A stretch of DNA of 53,863 nt. Source: Patescibacteria group bacterium (GTDB taxonomy: Bacteria > Patescibacteriota > Minisyncoccia > UBA6257 > 2-01-FULL-56-20). Under the pieces are notes generated by a model that saw only the letters and a list, made by a program, of their open reading frames with translations, had not been told where the DNA came from and made no database searches. Every line of letters starts with the position of its first letter. Positions within the stretch are counted from its first letter, which is position 1. The DNA lies in the NCBI GenBank assembly GCA_024654525.1, contig JANLHI010000015.1, positions 1 to 53,863 on the forward strand, given 5' to 3'. A program made the position numbers and the translations under genes. This document shows positions 4,963 to 53,863 of this stretch, piece after piece.

Positions 4963-5027
4963 TGCGTTACTTTCTATTATTCTCCATTCCACGCTATTGG
5001 GCAACCGGAGTACAATAAGACAATAGA

Positions 5028-6503
5028 ATGTCTCGTACTGCAAAAATAATCCTAATTCTTATATTCCTCCTCGCAGGATTTTTTCGCCTTTACCAACTCC
5101 CTCACACTCCCCCGGGACTCTATCCCGATGAGGCAATGAACGGGAATAACGCGATTGAAGCACTGCATACGGGAACATATAGGGTATATTATCCCGAGAA
5201 CAACGGACGCGAGGGACTCTTCATTAACATTCAGGCGATATTTCTTAAACTCATCGGCACAAACGAACCGTGGGTATTACGCCTGCCAAGCGCACTATTC
5301 GGAATCTTCACGGTGTTAGGGATATTTTTCCTTGCACGAGAACTATTCAAAACATACTCAGAAAAATATGCGGTATATGTTGGTTTACTATCTTCATTCC
5401 TCCTCGCCACGAGTTTTTGGCATATTATATTCTCCCGTATCGGTTTTCGCGCAATTCTTGCACCATTTTTCCTAGTATGGGCATTGTACTTTCTTCTCAA
5501 ATCCCTCCGCACAGAAAATTCCTCCGCGAACTGGCAGATTCCATATTCCATATTCGCCGGAATTCTCTTCGGTGCCGGCTTTCATACCTATATCGCCTAT
5601 CGCGTAACTCCCGCGCTCATCCTCATCCTTATTGCTTGGATATGGTGGCTTTATAAAGAAAACCGCAAGCGTATTCTCCTTGTTTCCTGTTTTTTTATTT
5701 TTGCTTCTGTAATAACCGTTTTTCCTCTTGGACTTCATTATCTTGGAACCCCCGACGACTTTTTCGGTCGCACCGGGCAAATCTCCGTTTTTTCTTCCCC
5801 TGCTCCTCTTCACGACTTGGGAATCAACATTATAAAAACCGCCGGAATGTTTACCATTCACGGGGATGAAAACTGGAGGCATAACTACGCAGGACGACCC
5901 GAGCTTTTCTTTCCCGTAGGAACAATGTTCCTTGTTGGGTTTATTCTTGGTATCAAAAATTTCCTCAAAAAGGAAACCACGTTCCCTTTTCTTATCCTCT
6001 TTTCATGGCTAGGACTCGCCGCGCTCCCTGTGGTCATCTCGAACGAAGGACTCCCGCACGCACTCCGCGCCATCCTCATGATTCCACCCGTAATTATCCT
6101 TGCTTCCGTGGGAACTGTCGCACTCTACAACACTCTAAAAGCTTATCTTCCAAAAATTATTTTCCTTTCTACTTTCTATATTCTCATTTCTTTAATGATT
6201 ATCGAACCCTTCAATACCTACTTCCTCCGCTGGGCACATAACTCCAATACTCAAGGTGCCTTCGCCGCCGATTACGTCGCGATAGGTCATGAAATCAACT
6301 TACTGCCCAAAAAAACCCAGAAATACATGGTGATTGAAGCCGGTGGCGTGGATATCCGGGGAATCCCCATGCCGGCACAAACAGTAATGTTTATCACAAA
6401 TTCCTTCTTGCCGGAAAACCAAATAGAAAAGAATATTCACTATATCCTTCCCGCTGACCGCATTACAATCCCCTCAAACGCCGAGATGTTCGAAATCAAA
6501 TAA
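5028..6503 (+). CDS. ArnT/PMT-like (GT-C fold) multi-pass membrane glycosyltransferase
   Basis: PPGLYPDEA near the N-terminus, LRLPSALFG, HIIFSRIGFR and many hydrophobic segments. Confidence 0.8.
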   Translation: MSRTAKIILILIFLLAGFFRLYQLPHTPPGLYPDEAMNGNNAIEALHTGTYRVYYPENNGREGLFINIQAIFLKLIGTNEPWVLRLPSALFGIFTVLGIFFLARELFKTYSEKYAVYVGLLSSFLLATSFWHIIFSRIGFRAILAPFFLVWALYFLLKSLRTENSSANWQIPYSIFAGILFGAGFHTYIAYRVTPALILILIAWIWWLYKENRKRILLVSCFFIFASVITVFPLGLHYLGTPDDFFGRTGQISVFSSPAPLHDLGINIIKTAGMFTIHGDENWRHNYAGRPELFFPVGTMFLVGFILGIKNFLKKETTFPFLILFSWLGLAALPVVISNEGLPHALRAILMIPPVIILASVGTVALYNTLKAYLPKIIFLSTFYILISLMIIEPFNTYFLRWAHNSNTQGAFAADYVAIGHEINLLPKKTQKYMVIEAGGVDIRGIPMPAQTVMFITNSFLPENQIEKNIHYILPADRITIPSNAEMFEIK

Positions 6504-8570: not shown

Positions 8571-10265
8571 TTAAGCGACTTCATTTTGGTAACAACCCTC
8601 GCAATACACGATTTCGGGACGGCCGGGGGCATAGGAGGTTTGTATATTCACACCACACTTTGAGCATGTACGACTAAATATTTCCATCGGATTAAGCTGT
8701 GTGATGCGCGCGCGGTCGCGACAAAGAGGACATTGGCGCGGAACGGGAAGATTAAAACGTTTTAAAAATTGAAGCTCCATCGGGATAATCTGATAATTCT
8801 TACCACATTGCTCACACTTTAAAATTTCTTTTATGAGAGTGTCGGGAACGTCTTTAATATGGTCGGGAAGCACAATGGTCGCATCGCGATACTCGCGTAC
8901 ATCCTGATCCCTCCATAAAAATCCTTCTTTGATTGCTTCCTCTTTTATTGAAGGAAACCATTCCTGCGCCGCAGACTCGTTATATGTCCACGGACTCATT
9001 GCGGAAGGCAACATTTCTCCATAGCGATATTCTCTCCCTTGCGCATCACGATAAGGAATCTCTGCCATTTGCTTTTTGATACGCGCTACCAAATCCAAAT
9101 ACTCGCTTTTCGTATACTGCTTATTCAATATGCAATACTCCGCGCCTCCCCGAAGCCCCACACATCCGAAAAGGTTCCCGGAGTTCATACATCCGAAGCA
9201 ATACTCAATATCACGACACCCATAACACCATACGGAAAATTTATTATGCGACGCAGTAATTCCCGTCCACACCGTGTCATACATCCATTCACTGTTGTCA
9301 CCGAAAAACGTCCAATCATATGCATTGCGCGCCGGTCCGTTTTTCAAAAACTGGCAATACCGCAAATTCTCACCATTTGCAAGGAGATATGAATTCTTCA
9401 CATTTTTTGAAGCATAAATATACTCCCCCGAAACGTCATAATTTTTCAAACCGTGAAAGTGCCTTCGGGGATACTTAAGAAGTAACAAGTCCACTTTAGA
9501 CTTGAATTCTTCAATTCCCTGCACGGAACCGAAATCGAATTCTTTTTGCAATTTTTCGTATTCTTCTTTTGTATATTGTTCGTTGAAAATACAAAATTGT
9601 TTATTTCTCAAGTTAATGCATCCGATACAGTCGGAACATCCTGCAATATCCCGCGAAAACCATATATTATGGCAATTATCACAGTCCTGTGAGAAAAACG
9701 CCTGATAGCATTTATTTATCCGAAAAGATCCATAACATCCTTCAATATTATTCGCGAATGAAGTATCGTAGGATCCTTTTGCGTCAACGATAGTATTTAA
9801 ATATCCATCATCTTCTCCATTGGTAATTCGAAAACATAAATAACAGTTTTTGAGTCCCGATGCAGCATTGCAGTAATCACTGTTTACCATTGTGGAATGC
9901 GCAGTATAAAGATTTGGAAGCGGAACTCTGAGCTGGAGCTCATGAAATTGCTCGAAAAAAGACCTCGAAAAATCATAATCGTATCCATATCCTTTCGGAT
10001 CCCACTGATCAGACCACCATATGTCCTGCCGATACATTTTATAAGGTGACTCCGAATGATGCGTGGTAATAAGCATATCCCCCGTAATATCGCACTTTCG
10101 TTTATAGAGAATGCGATATCCCTGCCACGCAAGACGCCTCACAAGTCGGCACCGCGGACACCACGTCGGCGGCGGGACATGGATGGTTTCGTAAAACGCA
10201 AAATCATCGGGCTCGATGGTAAAATCGAATTTACAATTTTGACACTGGCGAGTTTCGCTATTCAT
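8571..10265 (-). CDS. Cys-rich Zn-ribbon/repeat protein, paralog 4 (564 aa)
   Basis: MNSETRQCQNCK...VPPPTWCPRCRLVRR ... CPLCRDRAR ... YCEGCYQNEVA. Confidence 0.9.
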   Translation of the reverse strand: MNSETRQCQNCKFDFTIEPDDFAFYETIHVPPPTWCPRCRLVRRLAWQGYRILYKRKCDITGDMLITTHHSESPYKMYRQDIWWSDQWDPKGYGYDYDFSRSFFEQFHELQLRVPLPNLYTAHSTMVNSDYCNAASGLKNCYLCFRITNGEDDGYLNTIVDAKGSYDTSFANNIEGCYGSFRINKCYQAFFSQDCDNCHNIWFSRDIAGCSDCIGCINLRNKQFCIFNEQYTKEEYEKLQKEFDFGSVQGIEEFKSKVDLLLLKYPRRHFHGLKNYDVSGEYIYASKNVKNSYLLANGENLRYCQFLKNGPARNAYDWTFFGDNSEWMYDTVWTGITASHNKFSVWCYGCRDIEYCFGCMNSGNLFGCVGLRGGAEYCILNKQYTKSEYLDLVARIKKQMAEIPYRDAQGREYRYGEMLPSAMSPWTYNESAAQEWFPSIKEEAIKEGFLWRDQDVREYRDATIVLPDHIKDVPDTLIKEILKCEQCGKNYQIIPMELQFLKRFNLPVPRQCPLCRDRARITQLNPMEIFSRTCSKCGVNIQTSYAPGRPEIVYCEGCYQNEVA

Positions 10266-10463: not shown

Positions 10464-10545
10464 AGAAAAAAGTATGGATAATTTATTGTGCGAGGTCAAC
10501 TTTAGTCTATTGGGGCTTAACCCCGATAGACGGCTTTCTCTGATT

Positions 10546-10587
10546 CGGCAAGGTTGAACCTTGCCGGGATTCCTAAGGTTCAACCTT
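10546..10587. repeat. Two AAGGTT(G/C)AACCTT palindromes
   Basis: cggcaaggtt-g-aaccttgccg (10546..10566) and aaggtt-c-aacctt (10575..10587), directly after the stop of 10588..12375. An imperfect hairpin also lies at 10505..10531. Confidence 0.9.
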
Positions 10588-12375
10588 TCAGGCGACCTCG
10601 GTGTGGTAGCAATTTTCACAATACACTATCTCTGACTGATCGGGAGCATAACTCGTTTCGAATTCGTTCGGACAAGGATTTTCCCCGTGAGAGTGGGCTA
10701 CGGTATTTTTATATCTGTTTTTTTCTTGATTACACATGCAATGGCGCCGCCACAGCCGGGGCGGATTCCGCTTCTTGAAGCGCGCAAAGTGGCGTGTGTT
10801 GGGGCACTCGCGCGGGATCGGGATATTCATCCGTCGGTAAAAGGAAAGTTCTTCCGCCGTGATACGGAACGCTTTCGTGCAATTATGCTCTTCAGTGGTC
10901 TGATCGCCGCGTATCCCCCACGCCTGACATAGAATCACTTCTTTAATAATGTCATCCTTCACCGACGCGCTCTCGTCCGGCACATCTTTCCATTCGAGCG
11001 TAGGTACATGCTTCTTCTCCTGCACATCTTCCCACAACAACCTTCGCCCAAGCACTTCTTGCCTCGCAAGCGGAAAATAGTCGTACGCCGCAGTGGTGTT
11101 GTATGCCGACGCGGACAACTCCGGCGGAAAAAATTCTCCGAAGCGGTACACTATCCCGCGCGAATCGGCATAAGGCATCACATTCATGTGCTCAATAATT
11201 TTCGGGATAAGTTTCTCGTATTCTTCTTTCGCATACTGCCGGTTCAAAATGCAGTATTCCTTTTTGCGCATACCAACACATCCGAAAAGATTCGCGGACG
11301 CATAGCAGTTATCACAATACGTAAGGTCGTGGCATGCATCCCACGATTCGTTCACGAAGCGAATCCGCGTGGAGTTATATCCGCAGTTCGCAGTTTCGTA
11401 GATAAGTTCCCCGCCGCGCCCCCAATACGAGTAGTCCATGCAGTCCTTGCTCTCAATAACCGAAAGGAGATTCTTGCCGTTCTCCACTTTTCGGGATTGG
11501 TAGGAATTTTTAACGTCCTTGCAGTCGATAAGCCAGTTCCCGGAGGAATTCACGCAATTCGTGTTCGCGGCGGGCTCATGTATGGCACGCCCTAAAAGTT
11601 CTCCGAACCGTTCGGCGAATGCCACACGCCCTTCGTGCGTATGAAGACGGAGCTTTTGTACCTCCCGCTCATATTCTTCCTTTGTATACGGCCGGTTCAA
11701 AATGTAGTACTGCTTATTGCGGAGTCCCGCACATCCCGCGCATTGCATGCAGTTCCTGCAGTCAAACAAAAAAAGCGAATCGCGACATTGCCTGCACTCC
11801 TGGCAATACTGAACGTTATAACACTCCGCAACATCAACACATTGATACGAAAGCTCGGACTTGTGAGCGTTAAAGCAATCTGCGGAATCGCGGCAATCCC
11901 AAAGATTATAGGAATACCGCGAGTTTTCGTTGTAATTTGCCCGCACGAGGAGATATGAATTCTTGTTATAGCTCGCGCGATTGCAAAATGCGTTGCCCGT
12001 CGGGTCTCCCTGAATCACCCGCTCCGCCCTCGGCACGCGCAACTTCAACTCTTTAAATTGCTCGAAAAACGGCTTCGAAAAATCATATTCCGCTCCGTGG
12101 GAGAGCGGGTCCCAACGGTCGCTCCGGTAACAGTCAAGGCAATACACGGGAAACACCGTCCCCGCAGAATACATTGATACTATGTCTTTGCGGCATAGCC
12201 CGCATGCGTTTTTGTATAAATGTCGCTCGTTACAAAACGACAGCCGCCGCTGCAACCGGCATTCCGGACACCACGTCGGCGGCGGGACTTTTATTTTTTC
12301 GTAAAACGCAAAATCATCCGGCTCGATGACGAACCGGGATTTGCAGGATTGGCAAGTTTGGGTTTCGGGATTCAT
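10588..12375 (-). CDS. Cys-rich Zn-ribbon/repeat protein, paralog 5
   Basis: MNPETQTCQSCK...VPPPTWCPECRLQRR ... YCENCYHTEVA. Start placed at ATG 12375 by comparison with paralogs (track start 12393). Confidence 0.9.
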   Translation of the reverse strand: MNPETQTCQSCKSRFVIEPDDFAFYEKIKVPPPTWCPECRLQRRLSFCNERHLYKNACGLCRKDIVSMYSAGTVFPVYCLDCYRSDRWDPLSHGAEYDFSKPFFEQFKELKLRVPRAERVIQGDPTGNAFCNRASYNKNSYLLVRANYNENSRYSYNLWDCRDSADCFNAHKSELSYQCVDVAECYNVQYCQECRQCRDSLFLFDCRNCMQCAGCAGLRNKQYYILNRPYTKEEYEREVQKLRLHTHEGRVAFAERFGELLGRAIHEPAANTNCVNSSGNWLIDCKDVKNSYQSRKVENGKNLLSVIESKDCMDYSYWGRGGELIYETANCGYNSTRIRFVNESWDACHDLTYCDNCYASANLFGCVGMRKKEYCILNRQYAKEEYEKLIPKIIEHMNVMPYADSRGIVYRFGEFFPPELSASAYNTTAAYDYFPLARQEVLGRRLLWEDVQEKKHVPTLEWKDVPDESASVKDDIIKEVILCQAWGIRGDQTTEEHNCTKAFRITAEELSFYRRMNIPIPRECPNTRHFARFKKRNPPRLWRRHCMCNQEKNRYKNTVAHSHGENPCPNEFETSYAPDQSEIVYCENCYHTEVA

Positions 12376-12388
12376 GAGATTCTGTGAT

Positions 12389-12414
12389 GGCAAGGTTGAA
12401 CCTTGCAGGGATTC
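12389..12414. repeat. 26-bp direct repeat of 10547..10572 containing the AAGGTTGAACCTT palindrome
   Basis: ggcaaggttgaaccttgc[a]gggattc versus ggcaaggttgaaccttgc[c]gggattc, 25/26 identical. Confidence 0.92.
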
Positions 12415-12426
12415 ATACTAAGTAGG

Positions 12427-22560: not shown

Positions 22561-22800
22561 ATGATTACAATCTATGCGCTACGAAGCCAAAAAGATGGAA
22601 GAATTTATGTCGGGATGACTGAAAATTTGCAACGCCGGATGGCAGAACATAACCAAGGATTGGTCTTTTCCACAAAAGGATTCTTACCTTGGAAAATTAT
22701 TTACCGTGAAGATGCTCCTGACCGAGTAGCCGCGAGAAAAAGAGAAAAGTTTCTGAAAGGCGGTTCGGGAAAAGAGTATCTCAAAAAGATTCCGGCGTAG
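22561..22800 (+). CDS. Small stand-alone GIY-YIG nuclease (79 aa)
   Basis: TIYAL..IYVGMTENLQRRMAEHN..YRE..ARKREKFLK. Its last codons and TAG lie in tRNA nt 1-10. Confidence 0.9.
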   Translation: MITIYALRSQKDGRIYVGMTENLQRRMAEHNQGLVFSTKGFLPWKIIYREDAPDRVAARKREKFLKGGSGKEYLKKIPA

Positions 22801-22865
22801 CTCAGCGGTAGAGCGGCTCCCTGTTAAGGAGATGGTCGCAGGTTCGATCCCTGCCGCCGGAGCCA
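22791..22865 (+). tRNA. tRNA-Asn (GTT)
   Basis: Acceptor TCCGGCG/CGCCGGA, D arm GCTC/GAGC, anticodon loop CT-GTT-AA, T arm GCAGG-TTCGATC-CCTGC, discriminator G, encoded CCA. Confidence 0.96.
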
Positions 22866-22867
22866 AG

Positions 22868-22914
22868 AAACTAGATACGAACTCATCTTCAAAAAATGAG
22901 TTCGTATCTAGTTT
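22868..22914 (+). terminator. Hairpin with 19-bp perfect arms directly after the tRNA
   Basis: aaactagatacgaactcat-cttcaaaaa-atgagttcgtatctagttt. Confidence 0.75.
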
Positions 22915-23322
22915 AACTGCTCCCGAATTAAAACTTTCGCAAACCCCGAAGGAGAACAAGTTCCCTACGGGGCATGCTTTTGAAATCATTTTGCCAAATC
23001 TGATACACAAATCCAAGACCCTTCTTCGCGTAAAGCTGCGGAAGGGCGCAGAGCGAAATCTGAAATGATGCGCCCCGCCACTATTTTTCTGGGGATATGG
23101 AGGCGGGGCGACGGACTCGCCCGCGCGGACTTCAGCTTTCTTTTTTGAAAAAATTTACGGCTATTGCCTGACTTTATCTTAAACTTTTTATCCAGTGAAA
23201 CACACAGAAAAACAGAGAATTGCTTTCTCACAACCTTGCGTTAATAAAAATATGCTGTTTCGCACAAAACTTTTTGTATCGCCGAAGGATTTTTTGCTAT
23301 GCTGAATTTATAGAACAAAAAA

Positions 23323-26977: not shown

Positions 26978-29326
26978 TCATACATTGCAGATCACTCGCC
27001 ACACCTCACTTAAAAACAAATCCGCCCCTCTCAAGAGGGACGGTTTGTTCACATCAAGTATTGACTGTGGTGCAGAAGATTTGAATCGTTCACGTAATGT
27101 CTGGAAGAAATCCGCGACCTGTTGAAAGGAAAATTCGAATACACGCGATGTTTTTTCTAAAACCATTGCAGTACTTCGCACTCCCCACGAAAAAAAGTCG
27201 GCTACTGTCCCAAATGATGTAGCGGCAACATACGCAATAAATGTACTACGCACATTTTCTTGCGGTGCTTGTCCCACTTCGATAACCGTTGGTAATGAAG
27301 GTTCCGTGCTTGTTGCCGAAACCGATGTTTCGCCAACTAACGGACTTTCCTCGGACGGTGACGCTGATCCTACCACAGAAGAAATATCTTCACTTCCGTT
27401 GCGAGAATCTTTGTAGGCATCGAATATCGCCAATTCATCCGCAGTAAATGCTTTTGAGACACTGCATATAATCTCATTCATTTTATGCAACGTGGTGATA
27501 TAGACATATCCAGTCGGTGCTTTCGTTCCCCACGGTTCCAAAATGTCATCCGCATATCTCTCCTGAAATACACTTACCGCGTCAAATGTCGCTTGATCAA
27601 ATGTGCCGTTTACCTGCAAATTCGTCGCGCCATCATAACGCTGAAGAAAATTTTGGAGCTTCATCACCTCGAAAGGGTCGTTATCCTCCCCGATACGCAT
27701 ATAAGTCTTAAACGGTGAAGTACACAATCCTGACCCAGTCAGGTATGACGTTACACCGCCGGAAACTGTTGCGAGTCTTGGAGAATTCCCTTCGGTCCAA
27801 TTTATCGTACCTCCATATCCCACATTCACGGAAGGACCGTGTATCACAGACTGTGGTGTAAGAGATCCATCATCATCTGTAACAGGTGGGGTGGAAGTGG
27901 CAACTACTATGGGCGGAGTGGACGTAGCAACTACTATCGGTGGGGTGGAAGTGGCAATTACTATGGGCGGAGTGGACGTAGCAACTACTATCGGTGGGGT
28001 GGAAGTGGCAATTACACCACCAGTGCCTCCTCCCCCGTTCAGCGGCGGAGGTATAACAACCACCACTGCATCATCGCCGTTATCACTTCCTCCGTGTACA
28101 GGAGTAGTGTCAACCACAGTAACTCCATCATCGCCGTTTTCGGAATTTCCGTCGGAAATCGCGATAAGACTCTCACCGCCATTCTCGGACGATCCCGTGG
28201 CCGCTTCGAGTAATACGGATACTATGGCATCATCGCCGTTTTCTGATGATCCTGCCAATACCGTAAGTACTTGGGATACTGCCGCATCGTCTCCATTTCC
28301 AGATTGCGCAACGGGTTCCTCTGCAAAAGTAGCATTGTCGTCATTTCCATTCTCGGACACGCCAACTGCAACTTCAACCGCGGAAACCACTGCATCATCG
28401 CCGTTATCACTTCCTCCGTGTATAGGAGTAGTATCAACCACGGTAACATCATCATCGCCGTTTTCGGACACTGCCACAACTTCGTGAAAAGAAGAAAGTT
28501 CCGACTCTTCGCCGTTTTCGGAAAAACCCGAAGGCGCTACACCGGACACTATTACCTCTTCATCGTCTCCGTTCGCGGATGATCCTGCGGCTATCGTAAC
28601 CACCGAAAAAACTATCGCATCCTCGCCGTTCGATGACGTGTCTTCCACAACTAAAGTTTCGTCGGTATTGGGAGAAAAAAGAATTTCTTCTCCATTTTCC
28701 GAGAATCCTGTTGCAGGAAGAATCGAAACCGAAATAGTATCTTCACCATTCGATGAAATAGGGTCGGCAAGAACCGCATTGTCAGAATCAGTTCCGGAAA
28801 CCGAATCCTCATTGGCGTTTTCAGAAAAACCAATCACATCGGCAACACCAGTATTACTCGGTGAGGATACCGAAACACTTTCGGTATTCTCCGATACACC
28901 GGATGCTACACTTTCCTGCGATGGATTTGTCGAAACCGCTACGGAATCCAAATCGCCGTTCTCTGAAGAACCAGACGTTATAGAGACATCAAGTAGGGCG
29001 TCATTTCCATTTTCGGAAACAACATTTATCACTTCAATTACAGAGTTATCCGCAACTTCGGCGATACCGTCGTTACCGTTTTCAGACGCAACGCTTTGTT
29101 CCAGAAGAAACACGGGGATATCAAGTGAAATCCCTTCATCATTTTCAGACGATCCAATTATCTGCTCCACAGAAACACTGATGCTTGCCTGCTCGGTAGG
29201 CAGGCCTTCATCGCCATTCTCCGACAATGCAAACGCTTGCGCGTACGCACCAGAAGGAATGGATGCGATGATAATCATACAGACAAATGCCGCAACCGCG
29301 GCCTTGCTGCGTGTGAATATACGCAT
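26978..29326 (-). CDS. Secreted acidic protein with 20 S-x-N-G-D/E repeats, a Thr/Pro stalk and a C-terminal peptidoglycan-binding-like domain
   Basis: Signal peptide ending AYA; 20 SxN(G) motifs counted; 5x ATSTPP; EVMKLQNFL..NGTFDQATFDAVSVFQ..TGYVYITT. Confidence 0.8.
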   Translation of the reverse strand: MRIFTRSKAAVAAFVCMIIIASIPSGAYAQAFALSENGDEGLPTEQASISVSVEQIIGSSENDEGISLDIPVFLLEQSVASENGNDGIAEVADNSVIEVINVVSENGNDALLDVSITSGSSENGDLDSVAVSTNPSQESVASGVSENTESVSVSSPSNTGVADVIGFSENANEDSVSGTDSDNAVLADPISSNGEDTISVSILPATGFSENGEEILFSPNTDETLVVEDTSSNGEDAIVFSVVTIAAGSSANGDDEEVIVSGVAPSGFSENGEESELSSFHEVVAVSENGDDDVTVVDTTPIHGGSDNGDDAVVSAVEVAVGVSENGNDDNATFAEEPVAQSGNGDDAAVSQVLTVLAGSSENGDDAIVSVLLEAATGSSENGGESLIAISDGNSENGDDGVTVVDTTPVHGGSDNGDDAVVVVIPPPLNGGGGTGGVIATSTPPIVVATSTPPIVIATSTPPIVVATSTPPIVVATSTPPVTDDDGSLTPQSVIHGPSVNVGYGGTINWTEGNSPRLATVSGGVTSYLTGSGLCTSPFKTYMRIGEDNDPFEVMKLQNFLQRYDGATNLQVNGTFDQATFDAVSVFQERYADDILEPWGTKAPTGYVYITTLHKMNEIICSVSKAFTADELAIFDAYKDSRNGSEDISSVVGSASPSEESPLVGETSVSATSTEPSLPTVIEVGQAPQENVRSTFIAYVAATSFGTVADFFSWGVRSTAMVLEKTSRVFEFSFQQVADFFQTLRERFKSSAPQSILDVNKPSLLRGADLFLSEVWRVICNV
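27885..28015. repeat. 27-bp coding tandem repeat with A/B alternation (54-bp higher-order unit)
   Basis: ggtggggtggaagtggcaa(c/t)tactatg alternates with ggcggagtggacgtagcaactactatc (A-B-A-B-A partial); encodes (V/I)ATSTPPIV. Confidence 0.9.
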
Positions 29327-29347
29327 CAAAAATTTCTATGGGTTAAA

Positions 29348-47178: not shown

Positions 47179-47184
47179 AAATAA

Positions 47185-47367
47185 CTACCGCTTTCGTGTT
47201 GTAATTTTTTCATTATCAAGAAGTTTTTCGCGAGAGAGAAAGAGCTCTATCGGCTTCCCGCACTGCGCACATAACATGAGCGATGCATACGCTCCTTTCC
47301 CGACCGATATCATCTCCCCTCGACTACGAATCTCTTTTTTGCATTTATCACACTGATATTTAAGCAC
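47185..47367 (-). CDS. 60-aa Zn-ribbon protein
   Basis: CDKC...CAQC; co-oriented and tightly packed with its neighbours. Confidence 0.6.
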   Translation of the reverse strand: MLKYQCDKCKKEIRSRGEMISVGKGAYASLMLCAQCGKPIELFLSREKLLDNEKITTRKR

Positions 47368-47375
47368 AATACTAA

Positions 47376-47675
47376 TTATCGCCTTCGTTCCAACTTCGCG
47401 ACTCTTTCCTCTAACCGTTTCATTTGCATGCCAAACGCCGCAAGTTCTTTCTTTTGATCTTCGTACATTGAAATAAACCGATCAAGTTTCGAAAAAAGCT
47501 CGCCAGAATTTTCCTTCATCCATTGCACATCATTCTTTACTTCCCGAAATTCCCTCTCCACATCATCAAGCTGCTTATTAAGCATACCAAAATCCGTCTG
47601 AACCGCTTTCGCAAACGGCTCAAACACTTCTGTTACTGTGCCTTTTATTTGAACGAGATCTTTTTTAGTGAGCAT
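47376..47675 (-). CDS. 99-aa coiled-coil hypothetical protein
   Basis: Heptad-rich C-terminus (MKRLEERVAKLE); TATAAT just upstream. Confidence 0.7.
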   Translation of the reverse strand: MLTKKDLVQIKGTVTEVFEPFAKAVQTDFGMLNKQLDDVEREFREVKNDVQWMKENSGELFSKLDRFISMYEDQKKELAAFGMQMKRLEERVAKLERRR

Positions 47676-47736
47676 TAAAATAAATTATATCACTCGCCCT
47701 CTTCGGGAACAATCAACCCCTCCACGCCGTCATGGA

Positions 47737-47763
47737 ACTCGTCGCCCCCGTGCCGATATTGCC
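47737..47763 (-). repeat. Intergenic copy of the GNVGIGT junction sequence
   Basis: ggcaatatcggcacgggggcgacgagt versus ggcaacgtcggcatcgggacgacgagt (52137->52111), 22/27 identical. It also forms a 17/18 inverted repeat with 48290..48307. Confidence 0.7.
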
Positions 47764-47811
47764 TGCGCGTTGAACCATACCTCATCTCCATATTGTTACA
47801 GTATACCAAAT

Positions 47812-48222
47812 CTACTTTTTCGGGGGTGTGAATTTCTGCCACGCCTTCTCGAGCCGGAAAATCTTTGACCGCACCGCTTCGTACCGCGCCATAAGGTTGT
47901 CGAGAAGGGAAATATCCAGCTTCTCGCCGTAGATTCCCTTCATGTGTTCGAGGTACACCACCATCTTGTTGCACCCCGCCATTGCCCGCTCAAGAAGCAA
48001 AATCCCCGTTGCATGGTCGCCGAAGCGCAATGAGTGTGCGGTTGCAAGTGTAAGCGGAACCCCCCGCGCCGTGTCCGCCATCCCTTCTCCAAAAGGGCAC
48101 TTTGACTTCTCGAGTTGAGGGAGAATGTCCTTCGCTACAATCACAGAACACGCAAGGGTCGCTTGATACACTTCCAGATCACGAAAGCTACGAACTGGTT
48201 TTTTTGGTTGGTATTTGTACAT
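47812..48222 (-). CDS. Four-helix-bundle protein (23S rRNA IVP/Avd-like)
   Basis: VRSFRDLEVYQ..VPLTLATAHSLRF..AMAGCNKMVVYLE. Confidence 0.8.
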   Translation of the reverse strand: MYKYQPKKPVRSFRDLEVYQATLACSVIVAKDILPQLEKSKCPFGEGMADTARGVPLTLATAHSLRFGDHATGILLLERAMAGCNKMVVYLEHMKGIYGEKLDISLLDNLMARYEAVRSKIFRLEKAWQKFTPPKK

Positions 48223-48307
48223 CGCAGTGCCGACGTTGTCTTATGTTTTACAATCCGTCCCTTTGTCTTCTCGGCTCAACGCACAATAAAATATCGGCAC
48301 GGAGGCG

Positions 48308-49558
48308 TCACACCACTATCACTTTTTCTCTTTTCTCCAAAGGAATTTCGACCTTTGTACCATCCTTGAATCGCACTCTTTTCTTTGGGCGTTTTAGCTT
48401 CCGCACCACATGGAGCGGGTAAAACTCAAAGTATTCTTTCTCGTCGAACCACGCGCACTTGAATTCAAAAAGCCGCAGGCCTGTCAAGCGCGACAAAGCA
48501 AGCGCGTACCACGTGAGTTGTTCAATGGGACGCTCCTTCGCGGCATTCGGTTTGTAGTCCAGAATGTGCACGCACCCATTGCGGACTTGGACTAAATCTA
48601 TGTGCCCGGTGAGGAGATTGGGCAACCCCGTGCCACGATTGTCCTGCCGCTTTTGCGCGGTCCCCTCGGACGGCTCAATGCGAGCATCAATATCGGCACC
48701 GGGACGCGCACGCCTTCCTCCTTTGAGTTGCATTCCTTCCTCTCCTAATATGTTGAATCCAAGCTCGTTTTGGAGATGTTTAATATCTTCCCGGCGTATA
48801 TACACCGGCACTTCCGTCGCCACCATCACGCTGTCGTTCGCAATCATAAACCGTTGGATTTGTTCGTGCCGCTCCTTATTCTCGCGCACGGAGGCAAGCA
48901 CGAACGCCGCGAGCCGGTTTGCGTAGTTGGTTTTTCCCTTCACAATCATTTGCGCCTTATCGAACCGCGATTTCACTTCCGACATCCGCGCACCGTCTTG
49001 GAAATACTGGTGCGGCGTTTCCGTGGAAACCGCATCAAGATAGTCCTTGAGGCGCGAGAGACGCCGGTTGCCAAATTCCTGAAGCATCAAGGCAATTTTT
49101 GCGCGGTGGTAACGGAAACGATACAGCTGACGGTGCGCGAGCGTGACCACTTCGACCGTTTCGCGGGGCTTGCAATACTTTACTGCGTAAGGACGAAGTC
49201 TCGCATAACGGCAAAGGTCTTCGTGCTCGTCAATCCATGCGGAGAGCGTGGCGGGCTCCGGCGAAACACCAAACTTTTTCTTCACAAGCGCGCACGCCTC
49301 CTCGCGCGTGAAGCCAAGATTGTAATAACTCATCGCCTCGATCACGATGGCAAGCGGAAAATGTTTGCCCTTCACATCGCTCCACGTGAATGTCCGCCCG
49401 CACTCCGGGTTTTTGCAAAGGTAGAGTTGCACCGTGCGATGCTTGTTATCCCGCAAGCCGCGCTTTACGAATTCTTTCGATTCGCAATACGGACACGCGA
49501 GCGCGGCGACATCGGGATCGCGCTCACGGCGGGCCGACATTGCCACAATTCGCGTCAT
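48308..49558 (-). CDS. IS1-InsA-like Zn ribbon/HTH fused to a C-terminal PD-(D/E)XK nuclease
   Basis: CPYCES..VKRG..QLYLCKNPECGRTF; helical HTH-like segment (TLSAWI); TEVPVY, GHIDLVQ, ILDYKP, QLTWYALAL. The start could be 49540. Confidence 0.8.
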   Translation of the reverse strand: MTRIVAMSARRERDPDVAALACPYCESKEFVKRGLRDNKHRTVQLYLCKNPECGRTFTWSDVKGKHFPLAIVIEAMSYYNLGFTREEACALVKKKFGVSPEPATLSAWIDEHEDLCRYARLRPYAVKYCKPRETVEVVTLAHRQLYRFRYHRAKIALMLQEFGNRRLSRLKDYLDAVSTETPHQYFQDGARMSEVKSRFDKAQMIVKGKTNYANRLAAFVLASVRENKERHEQIQRFMIANDSVMVATEVPVYIRREDIKHLQNELGFNILGEEGMQLKGGRRARPGADIDARIEPSEGTAQKRQDNRGTGLPNLLTGHIDLVQVRNGCVHILDYKPNAAKERPIEQLTWYALALSRLTGLRLFEFKCAWFDEKEYFEFYPLHVVRKLKRPKKRVRFKDGTKVEIPLEKREKVIVV

Positions 49559-49830
49559 CGATAGAGGTCATGCGTTCCCACATCATGGAGCAACGCCACG
49601 CCATCACGGGGAAACGAAACAAGGATTCGGTAAGCCTGTACTACAGAAAACGACCAAAAGCCGGAGAGCTTGCCGCCGAGCTTGTGTGTTTTGAGAAATA
49701 GGCTGAAAGGATTATTTTCAAACATCCTCACCCGCGCCACAACATTGCGGCGGAATTCCGGAGGAAGTCTCCCGAACGCACGCTCGAAATGCGAAGTTGT
49801 TTCAACGCGAACGCCGTGCGCCTCGTGCAT
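49555..49830 (-). CDS. RelE/YafQ-type mRNA interferase toxin
   Basis: TTSHFERAFGRL..FENNPF..LKTHKLGGKLSGFWSFSV..YRILVSF..LHDVGTHDLYR; start at ATG 49830. Confidence 0.88.
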   Translation of the reverse strand: MHEAHGVRVETTSHFERAFGRLPPEFRRNVVARVRMFENNPFSLFLKTHKLGGKLSGFWSFSVVQAYRILVSFPRDGVALLHDVGTHDLYR

Positions 49831-50023
49831 GGAGGGGATGTGAAGTAGTAAGAAACGTCTCAAAGGTGCGGGTTTCCCCTCTGCGAAATTCCCGTGTTCC
49901 TTCACGAGCAATGCGAAGCACGTCCTCCACGCCAAAACTACGGCCACCCTGACGCCATCCTTTAGGAATACGAATGATGATTTCCTTTTTTGTTTCGGTA
50001 ATTGTAGGTACTCCTGTTTCCAT
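49802..50023 (-). CDS. Probable cognate antitoxin (73 aa)
   Basis: Small ORF directly upstream of and overlapping the toxin; a TTGACG-16-TACAGT promoter-like sequence lies 6 nt before its ATG. Confidence 0.7.
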   Translation of the reverse strand: METGVPTITETKKEIIIRIPKGWRQGGRSFGVEDVLRIAREGTREFRRGETRTFETFLTTSHPLHARGARRSR

Positions 50024-50084
50024 ATCCTTACTGTATCAAAATGTGGCATGACGTCAAACAAGACCATTTCACGATTTTCTTATA

Positions 50085-50141
50085 ATCAAATCGCACGAGT
50101 TTTTAGCTTTTATGCCTTCGTTGTGGCTATTCGTGAGACCC
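50085..50141 (-). repeat. ~57-bp imperfect direct repeat, copy 1 (copy 2 at 51057..51113)
   Basis: The first 18 nt (gggtctcacgaatagcca) are identical; about three-quarters identity overall by hand alignment. Confidence 0.8.
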
Positions 50142-50189
50142 AAGCGAGAAGAAAGGAGAAAGGAAATCCGTTCCACTCTCAAAATCATC

Positions 50190-50444
50190 TCATACTCTTT
50201 TTGAAGATTTTATAAGACCGTTGATCAATTTATGGACGTGTACTGATTGATCGTACATTGTATGGAAATCGCTCTGGGAAAGAAAACTGGCATCGCGTGC
50301 CACATGTAATTGGCTTTGAACCTCTCCAACAGAACCGCGCGCCATCGCATAAAACTGAACTTTTTCTTTGGAATGCTCCCGATTAAATTCCTCGGCGATG
50401 TTTGAAGTAACGGAAACCGCAGCACGCCGCATCTGATTCGCCAA
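50190..50444 (-). pseudogene. 5'-truncated four-helix-bundle (23S IVP-type) gene
   Basis: QMRRAAVSVTSNIAEEFNR..KEKVQFYAMARGSVGEVQSQL. The N-terminal FRDL/VWQ helix is missing and an in-frame TAG lies just upstream. Confidence 0.8.
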
Positions 50445-50492
50445 ACAATTTATGATTGGCTTTCTTACGGTGACACCCGACTATGAGGAAAA

Positions 50493-50534
50493 GGAAAGGT
50501 TCAACCTTGCCAAATGGCAAGGTTGAACCTTTCC
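50493..50534. repeat. Nested palindrome: 20-bp perfect arms, each containing AAGGTT(C/G)AACCTT
   Basis: ggaaaggttcaaccttgcca-aa-tggcaaggttgaacctttcc. Confidence 0.95.
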
Positions 50535-50621
50535 GGATTTCCACTTGACTTTTCTTTTTCGGTTGGTAACATGGAGGTACAAGTGCCTTCGGGCTCGCCC
50601 TGCGCAAGCAGGGAGATAAGT

Positions 50622-50658
50622 CAAAAAGCCGTCAAAACAACCCTTTGACGGCTTTTTG
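50622..50658 (-). terminator. Hairpin with 15-bp arms spanning the 3' end of the PemK gene
   Basis: caaaaagccgtcaaa...tttgacggctttttg. Confidence 0.65.
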
Positions 50659-51030
50659 TATACGCTCGAACACATCCTTCTCAAGGAAACCGACTTTATT
50701 AGTAAACCGCTTTGTATCTACAACGCGGACTTGAGAAATCAATGCGGATGCGCTCTGTCCCTCTACAATCCCCGCTGGCACACGCATTTTGTGTTTTTTT
50801 GAAGAAGTCGTGAGCGGTACCACTAGGCACGTGTGCGGACCGAGTCCTTTCAAAATAAGCACCGGGCGCTCGAATTCCATCCCCGTGCCATCCTCCTCAA
50901 AGCCGACGTTTGCTCCAAGTGAGCACCACCACACCTCCCGCTCATGATAAAGTTTACCCACACGGGCGTGATGAATCTCTTTTTTCTTCTCATTCCACCC
51001 ATCAAAGTCTTTTTTGTGCTTTTTCTCCAT
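50632..51030 (-). CDS. PemK/MazF-family toxin with no adjacent antitoxin
   Basis: HEREVWWCSLGANVGFEEDG..RPVLIL..VVPLTT..ISQVRVVDTKRF. Confidence 0.88.
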   Translation of the reverse strand: MEKKHKKDFDGWNEKKKEIHHARVGKLYHEREVWWCSLGANVGFEEDGTGMEFERPVLILKGLGPHTCLVVPLTTSSKKHKMRVPAGIVEGQSASALISQVRVVDTKRFTNKVGFLEKDVFERIQKAVKGLF

Positions 51031-51064
51031 ATCACACATATCACGAGTCCTTTGATATCCAATC

Positions 51065-51370
51065 TCACGACTTTCTCGCTTTTAAATCCTTATTATGGCT
51101 ATTCGTGAGACCCCGCACCTTGTCCAAACCACACCGCTTCTTCAGTTCCTGATACGCCTTCCCGAAATATTTTAGTTGCTTTTCTCGCTTCCGCGCACAC
51201 CATTCGTGAAGATACGCTTCGTAATACACGAGTGATACGGGAAGGCGATACTTCGTAGCAAATACCGAGCCTTGGCGATGTTCATCAAAGCGCCTCTGTA
51301 AGTCGTTCGTTGAACCGATATATAATTTCTCATCGCGCTGGCTCTTCAACACATACACATAGTACATCAT
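51065..51370 (-). CDS. Small stand-alone GIY-YIG nuclease (101 aa including read-through tail)
   Basis: MMYYVYVLKS..LYIGSTNDLQRRFDEH..YYEAY..ARKREKQLK. Confidence 0.92.
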   Translation of the reverse strand: MMYYVYVLKSQRDEKLYIGSTNDLQRRFDEHRQGSVFATKYRLPVSLVYYEAYLHEWCARKREKQLKYFGKAYQELKKRCGLDKVRGLTNSHNKDLKARKS

Positions 51371-51385
51371 GGACAAGGTGCGGGG
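51111..51385 (-). mobile_element. Putative 275-bp GIY-YIG mini-element with 16-bp terminal inverted repeats and 5-bp flanking direct repeats
   Basis: TGAGA[ccccgcaccttgtcca ... tggacaaggtgcgggg]TGAGA. The inverted repeats are perfect and overlap the ATG and the C-terminal LDKVRG codons. Confidence 0.75.
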
Positions 51386-51420
51386 TGAGATAAAAACGGG
51401 ATTAACAAGCTCAACACGAA

Positions 51421-51546
51421 GGCAAACTCGGCATCGGGACGGTAAATTTCGGAACCAGACCAAGCATGAAAATCACTACTCCTCAAACCCGCACCACAGT
51501 TCTATACAAACGATTTTACGACCTTGCGCTACCAAAGGTAGCATAG
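51421..51546 (+). other. Inverted copy of the GNVGIGT junction heading a start-less 41-codon frame (possible silent C-terminal cassette)
   Basis: ggcaaactcggcatcgggacg matches the junction at 19/21. It reads GKLGIGTVNFG...LPKVA*, with TAG at 51544..51546 abutting the giant gene's stop at 51547..51549. Confidence 0.55.
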
Positions 51547-53863
51547 TTATTTTCTTCCTGGAGGAACCTCCTGTGATGCAGGGTCAAACTCCCTTACGTC
51601 AATCCCGTTCACACCGTCATGGTTGAGATTTCCCCATTTCGTGTAATCCACGCGCGGAGCGGAAAGTTGGTAGGAAACCGAAACGGGGCGGTCAGCATAA
51701 AGCGTAATCTCCTCCCGCACAGGATTCAGCTCATACCACACCTTTGCTTCTCCTTCCGGCGTAAGGAACACCGAGAGCCGATTCCATGCGGTTTTAACCC
51801 CGAAATTGCTGGTTTTCTTGAAAAGCCACAGGTCAGAACCTTCTGACTCGTTTCCGAACGCAATCACATGTGTGTAGACGTTTTTCTCTGATTTTGTGAG
51901 TGCGACCTTCCCCGTCGTCTGCGTCCGCACTCCGCCCACATTATCGGGGCTGTACGTCGCGTAATTGATTCCCTCGATGGTGAATACCGGGTCAAAGGTT
52001 CCTGCGGTGATTTTACCCGCACCTCCCCCCACCACCAACACGTCCGTGGAAGTTGCTCCGACACGCGCGGTAGTCGCCCCACCGCTCGCAATGTCAAGTT
52101 TATAACTGGGACTCGTCGTCCCGATGCCGACGTTGCCGCTGCCTAAAATAGTCATTTTCTCTACAAATCCACTTCCCGAAGTGTATCCAAAAAAGTCTAA
52201 ACCGTATGTGTCACCTGTATCTCTCATTTTAATTGCAGCTACATTGGTAGGTGATCCACCATCAGTAGAAAAGTAAAGACCACCATTATATGCGGTGCCA
52301 CCTGTCGCATCATGTCGTATCCTAATACCAGACGAACCATCTGTTCCCGACTTATACACATCAAGAGCATATCCCGGCGCCGTCATCCCGATGCCGACGT
52401 TGCCGTTTGTATCGATAACCTCTCTTACTAAATTATTAGTAATGAAAGCTAAACTTTCGCTGCCTGCCGTATATATTCCATGTCTGAACGCGGCACCAAA
52501 TCCTTGAATATCGGCGGCGTCGTTTATGGCAAATTTAATGCCCCCATTTGTAGCAGGGTCTACTACATAAAATTGAGCTAAACCCGTAACTGATGTTTTG
52601 CCGACAGGTGTTGAAGCTACTTGTAATTTAGCAGTGCTTGGCGCCGTCGTCCCGATGCCGACGTTGCCGGAGGTATCTATCACCATTTTTGAGCCAGCGA
52701 CTGTTTCACCGCCACCTGTAATGAATGAAATACCTCTCTGAGTTCCCGTTCCATTTTTGTTCGTCCCTATTTTGAACCAGCCTGCTTCGTTGCTCATTCC
52801 CAAAAACATATAGCTAGAATTGTTGGGGTCAGATGCCGCCCAATTTATAAGGCCATACGATTCAGCTCCATGCCCTACATCCACGCGGCCGACTACATCA
52901 AGTTTCGCTCCCGGACTCGTCGTCCCAATCCCGACGTTGCCGTTGAATGCAAAAGTTCCAGGCTGTGCATTGTAACCCGTAAAATAGAGCAGGGCACTCG
53001 CACTAAACGCCTGGTTACCGCTTTCGATATAGTTCTTCCCGCCGCTCCCGCCAAACCAAACTTTGCTTGTCCCATCGCCGACATAAAGCCCACTTCCTCC
53101 GGAAAATACCGCGGAGGTGCCCACAACTGCGCCACTACTACTGACGGTAAATTGATTACTAGCCCCAACTGACAACAATGCCGTCGGCCCCGTCGTCCCG
53201 ATGCCGACGTTGCCGCTCGTATCCATGAACATGCCAGTGTTGAAAGTCCCCGAAGCGCTTGAATGAGTTTGGATCTGTAAAGTTGAAGCATAAGAAGTGA
53301 CCGAAGACATCCGGCTGGTAAACTTGGTGCTATAATCCCCCGCGACCGCGTCATCACGTCCCATAGAAAATACAATATCGCGGTTTGTGCCATGCCCCAG
53401 CGAAAGATGCATAAGATTTGTGGCCGTGCTGTCCGCGCCTGCACGGTGGATTTGCAAAGGTGCGTTCGGTCCCGCCGTCCCAATGCCGACGTTGCCGGAA
53501 GTTGCCAAAATCGTAACTCTCGGGTTATAAGTTGTTCCGTTATAGTCTCCGATAACCTGCCTACCTTGACCCGATGACCCCGTAGAAAAATACAAGTCAT
53601 GTTCATAAGAATTTCCTGCCATATCCGTTCCCAAACCCATCCATGCTTGGGAGTCTGCATCCAGTCCGTAAGTTTGTATTCTTGGACCGCCGGCAAAAGC
53701 TCCCCCAACCATAATAGCCGGCGCGGCAGTGCTGGTTTTCTGAACTTGCAACTTATACGATGGTCCCGTCGTCCCTATCCCAACCCGGTCATTCGTGGCA
53801 TCGATATACATCACATCCGCAGTGGAGTTGTAGTGCTGGAATTCATAGTTTCCTTTGGTGGAA
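51547..53863 (-). CDS. Giant GNVGIGT-module surface/fibre protein, C-terminal part (5'-truncated by the window edge)
   Basis: The frame is open to the window end (STKGNYEFQHYNSTADVMYIDATNDRVGIGTT...). Seven VGIG junctions are spaced 264-294 bp apart, followed by a distinct C-terminal domain (DPVFTI..SDLWLF..VSYQLSAPR). Confidence 0.9.
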   Translation of the reverse strand, partial: STKGNYEFQHYNSTADVMYIDATNDRVGIGTTGPSYKLQVQKTSTAAPAIMVGGAFAGGPRIQTYGLDADSQAWMGLGTDMAGNSYEHDLYFSTGSSGQGRQVIGDYNGTTYNPRVTILATSGNVGIGTAGPNAPLQIHRAGADSTATNLMHLSLGHGTNRDIVFSMGRDDAVAGDYSTKFTSRMSSVTSYASTLQIQTHSSASGTFNTGMFMDTSGNVGIGTTGPTALLSVGASNQFTVSSSGAVVGTSAVFSGGSGLYVGDGTSKVWFGGSGGKNYIESGNQAFSASALLYFTGYNAQPGTFAFNGNVGIGTTSPGAKLDVVGRVDVGHGAESYGLINWAASDPNNSSYMFLGMSNEAGWFKIGTNKNGTGTQRGISFITGGGETVAGSKMVIDTSGNVGIGTTAPSTAKLQVASTPVGKTSVTGLAQFYVVDPATNGGIKFAINDAADIQGFGAAFRHGIYTAGSESLAFITNNLVREVIDTNGNVGIGMTAPGYALDVYKSGTDGSSGIRIRHDATGGTAYNGGLYFSTDGGSPTNVAAIKMRDTGDTYGLDFFGYTSGSGFVEKMTILGSGNVGIGTTSPSYKLDIASGGATTARVGATSTDVLVVGGGAGKITAGTFDPVFTIEGINYATYSPDNVGGVRTQTTGKVALTKSEKNVYTHVIAFGNESEGSDLWLFKKTSNFGVKTAWNRLSVFLTPEGEAKVWYELNPVREEITLYADRPVSVSYQLSAPRVDYTKWGNLNHDGVNGIDVREFDPASQEVPPGRK

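Follow-up and report, generated by a model that had tools for sequence, protein, structure and literature searches.

The 3′ part of a modular fibre gene lies at one end of contig JANLHI010000015.1 of a Patescibacteria group bacterium, and the subject of this study is a 24-nt sequence that recurs in this gene at its module junctions. The window analysed is the entire contig of 53,863 nt; sequence past position 53863 is therefore outside its reach and the 5′ part of the gene is beyond recovery. The contig is cellular rather than viral, as it encodes MreB, MreC, a PBP2-type transpeptidase, a class II tRNA synthetase, GreA, ribonucleotide reductase and RecG; the nearest RecG genes among GTDB genomes are all of Patescibacteria/Paceibacteria type, with at most 54% identity to the RecG of the window. 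The fibre gene, read from its open reading frame (ORF) and translation, occupies 51547–53863 on the minus strand (2.3 kb), where 771 residues are seen up to a TAA stop at 51547–51549. An earlier reading of the letters of this DNA (the original prediction) had spoken of a giant protein. This was not borne out, as the contig ends inside the gene, and homologues that share its C-terminal domain are about 1,080–1,300 residues long. Homologue P0002 has a hydrophobic leader at its start. The break of the assembly inside the gene, at 53863, would fit strain-level variation or repeats at that point.

The 771 residues consist of seven units, each beginning with (S)GNVGIGTTxPxxKL: six stalk modules of 88–98 residues and a last unit of 196 residues, which is made up of the motif and a 188-residue tip. 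A Pfam scan identified no domain in the protein, which matches the PHROG tail-fibre families 9942 (E = 1e-22) and 18345. It also matches by sequence the solved Bdellovibrio fibres Bd2133 (8OND, E = 4.9e-6) and 8OJN (E = 1.9e-3). One module of the window aligns to one β-helix unit of these fibres, and the copies of the motif align to loop regions of Bd2133. At least 2,810 homologues were found, many with the S74 chaperone (PF13884) at the end; the closest full-length one is 35% identical, and no close relatives were found. Exact look-ups of the fibre fragment and of the MazF-like protein of the window returned no record. The fibres of Bdellovibrio bacteriovorus have been described as mosaic adhesive trimers (MAT), in which, as in S74 fibres, capping loops bound the β-helix units; the consensus of these loops is very near the motif of the window (Caulton et al. 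2024, PMC10769870). That consensus is V-G-G/N-pi-x-x-P-x-x-x-L, compared to V-G-I-G-T-T-x-P-x-x-K-L in the window, which is one residue longer. A term search of the same text found no mention of conservation of the motif at the DNA level. The window fibre resembles the MAT fibres in its sequence matches, in repeated β-helical units delimited by a capping-loop motif, in the mosaic combination of a constant stalk with a diversified C-terminal tip, and in being encoded on the chromosome of a bacterium that lives on other bacteria. Thus, by its sequence matches, the motif is the capping loop of a mosaic fibre, and the protein probably belongs to the MAT/phage-tail-fibre superfamily and is probably trimeric and β-helical.

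The tip (51550–52113, minus strand; residues 584–771) was delimited from the C-termini of homologues and an AF2 model. Of the top 120 homologues, 37 share it at 35–47% identity, always at the C-terminus. The model, a monomer of the last 217 residues, predicts a β-rich fold with a core pLDDT above 90, for which a comparison with the PDB returned no match at E<0.001. Since the Pfam scan found no S74 chaperone, the window fibre falls in a non-S74 subgroup with a tip domain of its own. In this it differs from the MAT and S74 fibres, as its tip has another fold with no solved relative, and it differs from the MAT fibres also in its host, a Patescibacteria genome.

At each junction the residues GNVGIGTT are encoded by GGCAACGTCGGCATCGGGACGACG, of which the gene contains three exact and three near-exact copies, all on the minus strand and spaced by 264–294 nt; no match arose in any of 100 shuffles. 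From the 5′ side of the gene, a degenerate copy encoding DRVGIGTT (53767–53790) opens module 1 (53497–53790), and a copy with two mismatches encoding GNVGIGTA (53473–53496) opens module 2 (53215–53496). An exact copy (53191–53214) opens module 3 (52942–53214), and a copy with two synonymous mismatches (52918–52941) opens module 4 (52669–52941). Module 5 (52405–52668) is opened by the second exact copy (52645–52668), module 6 (52138–52404) by a copy with one mismatch encoding GNVGIGMT (52381–52404), and the C-terminal tip region by the third exact copy (52114–52137). All positions and mismatch counts of the original prediction proved to be right, as did its remark that the modules are richer in AT than the junctions (module GC 0.42–0.54, compared to 0.71 for the 24-mer). 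Modules 5 and 6 (52138–52668) have 42–43% GC, and modules 2 and 3 (52942–53496) and the tip (51550–52137) 52–54%, differences that fit separate histories of the modules.

The constancy of the junction codons goes well beyond the protein motif. In the genes of the window GGC accounts for 18% of the codons of its residue, GTC for 10%, GGG for 19% and ACG for 28%, and at the junctions GTC, the rarest valine codon, is used in 6 of 6 cases and GGC in 11 of 12. Given GNVGIGTT and this usage, the probability of the exact 24-mer is 6e-6 to 2e-5 per site. Codon bias, with P of about 1e-5 per site, was ruled out as its source, and the comparison of junction codons with genomic usage that had been proposed with the original prediction thus gave a choice of codons that this usage does not explain. 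The third positions of the haplotype are all G or C. Its edges are sharp, because the conserved residues that flank it vary at their third positions: the Thr of IDT[SN] is encoded by ACC, ACA or ACG, and the Pro just outside the 24-mer by CCG, CCA or CCC, within the window gene. The modules are only 5–25% identical to one another as proteins, and recent tandem duplication was ruled out on this ground. Their divergence had been noticed correctly, but they are not unrelated as had been claimed, because each resembles the same β-helical unit of the solved Bdellovibrio fibres. In a search for known RNA families between 50000 and 53863, only sub-threshold, miRNA-like noise on palindromes was obtained.

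Comparison of homologous sequences shows the haplotype to be a family-wide trait that is not peculiar to the window locus. The exact 24-mer is present in at least 120 IMG/VR contigs with 29% to 65% GC. A scan of viral sequences with a pattern that leaves every third position open gave an unselected sample of 228 sites, in which the haplotype is in the minority, yet strongly over-represented with respect to the usage of each ORF: its codons are enriched 1.4–2.8-fold at seven of the eight positions, and 38 sites lie within three codons of it, compared to about 4 expected. It dominates in cellular homologues with the tip domain, even at loci of 30–40% GC. The GC content at third positions (GC3) of the motifs is 0.61–0.95 in the window and in loci L237–L240, compared to 0.19–0.47 in the remainder of the gene, and the neighbouring genes in L237–L240 have a GC3 of 0.10–0.33; at L242, a locus of 56% GC, the values are 0.88 for the motif and 0.69. 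Because GC3 outside the motifs matches that of neighbouring genes, transfer of the whole gene was rejected as a cause of the GC-rich motif. The fibre genes are compositionally at home in their genomes, and the 24 nt are not. A 61-nt junction query against cultured phages matched only the tail-fibre gene of Synechococcus phage S-CBP1, and a literature search with the motif string found no paper.

The relatives are mosaic, and the boundaries of the mosaic lie at the motif. Each module of the window has its own set of relatives, placed differently within proteins that are otherwise unrelated, and the motifs mark the limits of the alignments. Among the viral loci L051, L058, L090 and L070, single modules of about 300 nt are 97–99% identical between contigs, with flanks that are 68–82% identical or unalignable. 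Adjacent matches overlap exactly on the 24-mer, and L058 and L090 carry their common modules in permuted order. When all pairs were compared over the fibre regions, 22 of the 66 internal ends of segments at least 90% identical fell in the 24-mer ±6 nt, where the local density of motifs would predict 4.8 (p about 7e-10).

Outside the gene, the window holds a single further motif-like sequence in any frame. This orphan is a 21-mer on the plus strand (51421–51441) that matches the junction at 19 of 21 positions with an exact core of 14 nt. The inverted copy was correctly recognised in the original prediction: no such match arose in 100 shuffles, and its chance of occurrence in the whole window is estimated at about 5e-5. 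It stands in a start-less frame (51406–51546, plus strand) that reads GKLGIGT and is open from 51406 to a TAG at 51544–51546, with no start codon before the motif; the TAG abuts the TAA of the fibre gene, so that the tail-to-tail arrangement of the stops can be read directly from the sequence, as had been said. Motif-like codons extend over about 51412–51459, and their translation HEGKLGIGTVNFGTR agrees with the family consensus [ND]xG[NK]VGIGTTNPGT[KR] over some six residues past the 21-mer, without its invariant Pro. The 34-residue tail that follows has no relatives beyond the motif. The 20-mer in its orphan variant has no match in IMG/VR, where the canonical form occurs in the contigs counted above, and the 24 nt flanking the orphan gave 0 exact matches in a scan of JGI metagenomes. 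A copy on the opposite strand within two mismatches was found in none of 236 motif-bearing viral loci (2.16 Mb), and none was found in eight cellular loci (five homologue loci and the loci found by synteny). No plus-strand promoter was found for an orphan transcript. A palindromic hairpin GCTACCAAAGGTAGC (51528–51542), just outside the fibre stop, has a terminator-like score only on the plus strand.

The position of the orphan becomes clearer from the gene order. RecG-anchored synteny, which served for gene order only, identified a tip-domain fibre with few canonical motifs at 3 of 80 loci. At the syntenic loci L242, L275 and L278 the order is fibre, S26 signal peptidase, RecG, with a gene for a Gly-rich protein between the last two at L275 and L278; at L242 the fibre stop is 31 nt from the S26 gene. 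The window has the same order, plus an insertion of about 4.4 kb between the fibre stop and the signal-peptidase gene (47179–51546, minus strand, from Pfam and synteny). Pfam identified in it a PD-(D/E)XK nuclease (48308–49558), a MazF/PemK-like toxin (50632–51039, minus strand) and a GIY-YIG gene (51068–51373); a 23S-IVP protein and small ORFs are also present. None of the genes of the insertion occurs at L242, L275 or L278. The orphan lies at the fibre-side edge, 48 nt upstream of the GIY-YIG start, and no repeat was found at the other edge. Most likely, the insertion carries mobile or defence genes and has left the orphan at its edge; the orphan is most likely a decayed fragment of a junction, derived from the rearrangement that brought in the insertion, and not a working inversion site.

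We consider it probable that the gene encodes a chromosomal mosaic fibre whose modules are exchanged by general recombination at the 24-mer, with the inverted copy as an orphan. In this mechanism the fibre would consist of stalk modules of about 90 residues, each opened by the capping loop (S)GNVGIGTTxPxxKL, followed by the 188-residue tip, and the capping loop is written throughout the family in one 24-nt haplotype rich in GC3, whatever the GC content of the genome. The short identical stretch would serve as homology for general recombination, by RecA-type or phage annealing proteins, which would exchange, reorder, duplicate or delete modules on evolutionary time scales. Repeated conversion at the junction hotspot, possibly GC-biased, would keep the synonymous sites fixed; recombination would in this way maintain the haplotype, and we infer that it has also acted on this particular fibre gene. 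The claim that the junction is an exchange site thus stands for exchange in evolution, as judged from the modules and segment ends of the relatives, and is unsupported for a programmed switch.

Several points weigh against this explanation. The evidence for breakpoints comes from metagenome assemblies, although the k-mers that usually decide the final contigs are longer than a repeat of 24–30 nt. Alignments also run into any conserved motif, so that the number of ends at the 24-mer is inflated. Comparison of its DNA with the other loci revealed no recent exchange in the window gene, which matches them over 50–70 nt around the motifs and otherwise over at most 164 nt at 70% identity. The modules have drifted to the GC3 of their hosts and the motif has not. 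Recombination alone fails to explain how a GC-rich haplotype persists in AT-rich genomes, so that GC-biased conversion or selection on the DNA is needed as a candidate addition.

General recombination at short conserved DNA has precedents. In the vlsE system of Borrelia, cassettes with 17-bp flanking repeats are used for gene conversion with no dedicated site-specific recombinase. The fibre gene is similar in that short conserved DNA repeats bound variable cassettes and would serve as recombination homology, but differs in that the window contains no silent cassette array and its only extragenic copy of the motif is the orphan. A diversity-generating retroelement finds no counterpart in the window, where the scanned ORFs include no reverse transcriptase (RT) domain and no long pair of near-identical repeats involves the tip. 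In T-even phages, exchanges in the long-tail-fibre and gp38 adhesin genes are reported to take place within or near conserved glycine-rich motifs (Tetart et al. 1996, 1998, as cited in Trojet et al. 2011, PMC3157838), which part variable segments so that chimeric adhesins result. The clustering of segment ends at the 24-mer in relatives of the window fibre is comparable, and viral relatives with the same 24-mer have recombinant joints in conserved motifs as well. The T-even motifs are shared by phages of a single host group that are closely related to one another, whereas one 24-nt haplotype, whose synonymous positions do not follow the local composition, spans viral contigs of 29–65% GC and cellular Patescibacteria.

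This persistence against composition is the basis of a second, tentative possibility, which we consider clearly less probable than the first: the junction may be a dedicated DNA linker, kept by selection or GC-biased conversion, for the exchange of adhesin modules between phages and Patescibacteria across phyla, with the orphan as the footprint of such an event. We are more doubtful of neutral concerted evolution, in which conversion within the gene or between paralogues, possibly GC-biased, would homogenise the motifs with no role in module exchange. Copies within a locus do differ at fewer third positions (2.66 of 7) than copies from different GC-matched loci (4.35), and both the restriction of these positions to G or C and a motif GC3 far above the background of the gene would follow from biased conversion. 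Against this, it is one specific haplotype, and not any choice of G or C, that recurs at 29% to 65% GC, and exchange bounded by modules is directly seen in the relatives.

The synonymous constancy could also reflect a nucleic-acid element, with recombination not its cause: a hairpin CGTCG-N9-CGACG in mRNA or single-stranded DNA, acting, for example, to pause translation where modules meet. Folding of the 24-mer gives a 5-bp stem (−6 kcal/mol), and the third base of the Val codon complements that of the first Thr codon in 194 cases, compared to 131.5 expected (Watson-Crick fraction 0.61, against 0.50 expected from the usage of each ORF; odds ratio 0.40 in the A/T subset). This excess survives a cluster bootstrap by locus and stratification. 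At positions 9 and 21 of the 24-mer in the IMG/VR loci, complementary pairings (GTA/ACT, GTT/ACA and GTC/ACG) are above the prediction from codon usage; Val and Thr codons are complementary by nature. When one site per locus is considered, the excess over shuffles is marginal (16–21 of 500 shuffles reach it), and it is no better than that of partners slid by ±3 columns. The signal is still present with a residue other than Thr at codon 8, about half of the sequences leave the two variable pairs unpaired, and AT-rich versions would hardly fold. Enrichment is just as strong for codons that are not part of the stem, namely GGC at codon 1 and GGG at codon 6. The hairpin is thus a weak idea, and we regard it as unlikely.

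The original prediction had favoured an arrangement like the shufflon of R64, with the 34-residue tail as a possible off switch. A flip between 51421 and a junction, of this kind or in the manner of Gin, Cin or Min, would replace the tip by that tail. The R64 shufflon relies on the Rci tyrosine recombinase and on sfx sites in pilV, and Gin, Cin and Min invert tail-fibre segments of Mu, P1 and p15B. The locus is reminiscent of these systems in its short repeats within a fibre gene and in the start-less frame on the opposite strand downstream; moreover, the inverted copy is not due to chance, its frame stays open up to a stop that abuts the stop of the gene, and the similarity has sharp edges, like a site. 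The statement that no recombinase is visible in the window agrees with our Pfam scans of about 40 longer, mostly non-overlapping ORFs, among which no tyrosine or serine recombinase, invertase or RT was found, the region 5′ of the fibre gene being beyond the contig. None was found next to the fibre gene at the cellular loci of homologues. Compared to R64, an Rci-type recombinase is absent from the scanned ORFs, seven direct copies and one inverted copy replace inverted pairs of sites, and a tail of 34 residues stands in place of alternative folded C-termini; compared to Gin, Cin and Min, neither a serine invertase nor flanking inverted crossover sites were found in the window. No relatives with the arrangement of the window were found for either type: the 236 viral and eight cellular loci have no opposite-strand copy. 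The original prediction had itself named absence of the inverted 21-mer at orthologous loci as an observation that would speak against it, and at the syntenic L242, L275 and L278 the 21-mer is absent. In addition, the orphan carries two mismatches, in a variant that was not found in IMG/VR, and its tail has no relatives. We therefore consider programmed inversion very improbable.

Two roles for the orphan itself are hardly credible. In the first, a read-through fibre transcript would pair the anti-motif with the motifs and alter stability or the expression of GIY-YIG; no minus-strand terminator was found after the fibre stop and the minimum-free-energy fold of 52160–51380 does pair the last motif with the anti-motif, but such pairing is trivial given the complementarity, the fold has a z-score of −1.47, which is not significant, and no relative has such a copy. 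In the second, the adjoining GIY-YIG endonuclease would target the 24-mer, and the copy with two mismatches would be the remnant of a protected target. The endonuclease gene starts 48 nt from the orphan and DNA conserved in many genomes makes a good homing target, but the protein has 102 residues and no DNA-binding domain, no motif adjoins any of five further GIY-YIG genes from the window and other loci, and 0 fibre genes are so interrupted in more than 240 loci.

The fibre gene is a further member of the known mosaic fibres, and its family-wide codon haplotype is the feature that deserves following. Little is known of how Patescibacteria, which live attached to other microbes, recognise their hosts; a chromosomal MAT-like fibre whose tip is diversified and which is conserved beside a signal-peptidase gene is a plausible candidate for host attachment. 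With its codons fixed in genomes of about 30% to 57% GC and in many viral contigs, the junction provides a concrete, testable sequence for the natural reshuffling of receptor-binding fibres. It also offers a natural splice point at which fibre modules can be compared. The locus also illustrates that an inverted repeat beside an adhesin gene is insufficient to call a shufflon.

Additional repeats are present in the insertion. A perfect 17-nt inverted repeat, ACCCCGCACCTTGTCCA at 51110–51126 and TGGACAAGGTGCGGGGT at 51370–51386, brackets the GIY-YIG gene, with one arm over its start codon and the other just past the GIY-YIG domain; it may mark the boundary of a cassette or form a stem in the mRNA that hides the start. 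A second GIY-YIG gene of the window and four in other loci have no inverted repeat of this length; one of these, at L319, has a repeat of 13 nt. A 77-nt repeat, 74% identical between its copies at 50065–50141 and 51037–51113, lies directly upstream of two minus-strand genes, one at 49555–50067 and the other the MazF-like gene at 50632–51039. In both copies the similarity stops after GGCTATTCGTGAGACCC, a pattern that points to duplication of a promoter or leader. A third, looser version of this end is found at about 51474–51497. At L238, a 750-residue protein with a match to an intein-splicing domain (3801–6053) is encoded just upstream of the fibre and overlaps its start.

Elsewhere in the contig, four paralogous genes encode proteins of about 560–600 residues (1433–3238, 3235–5043, 8571–10265 and 10588–12393), and blocks of their DNA recur at 1–1235. 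At the C-terminus of one of the four proteins there is a weak, sub-threshold Pfam match to a treble-clef zinc finger; no Pfam match was obtained for the other three. A palindromic element, GGCAAGGTTGAACCTTGCC, occurs three times downstream of genes (10543–10575, 12388–12417 and 50493–50544), with perfect arms of 20 nt at 50493–50534. It looks like a REP-like element or a terminator, and it accounts for spurious matches to miRNA families. The second GIY-YIG gene (22561–22758), with 50% identity in the domain, is situated immediately upstream of a tRNA-Asn gene (22791–22865), and an inverted repeat with 31-nt arms (22859–22923) starts inside the 3′ end of this tRNA. Finally, a 783-residue ORF (26978–29329) contains tandem 27-nt units (a 54-nt double unit at 27885–28019) and short dispersed repeats, has a weak peptidoglycan-binding match, and is probably another repetitive surface protein.

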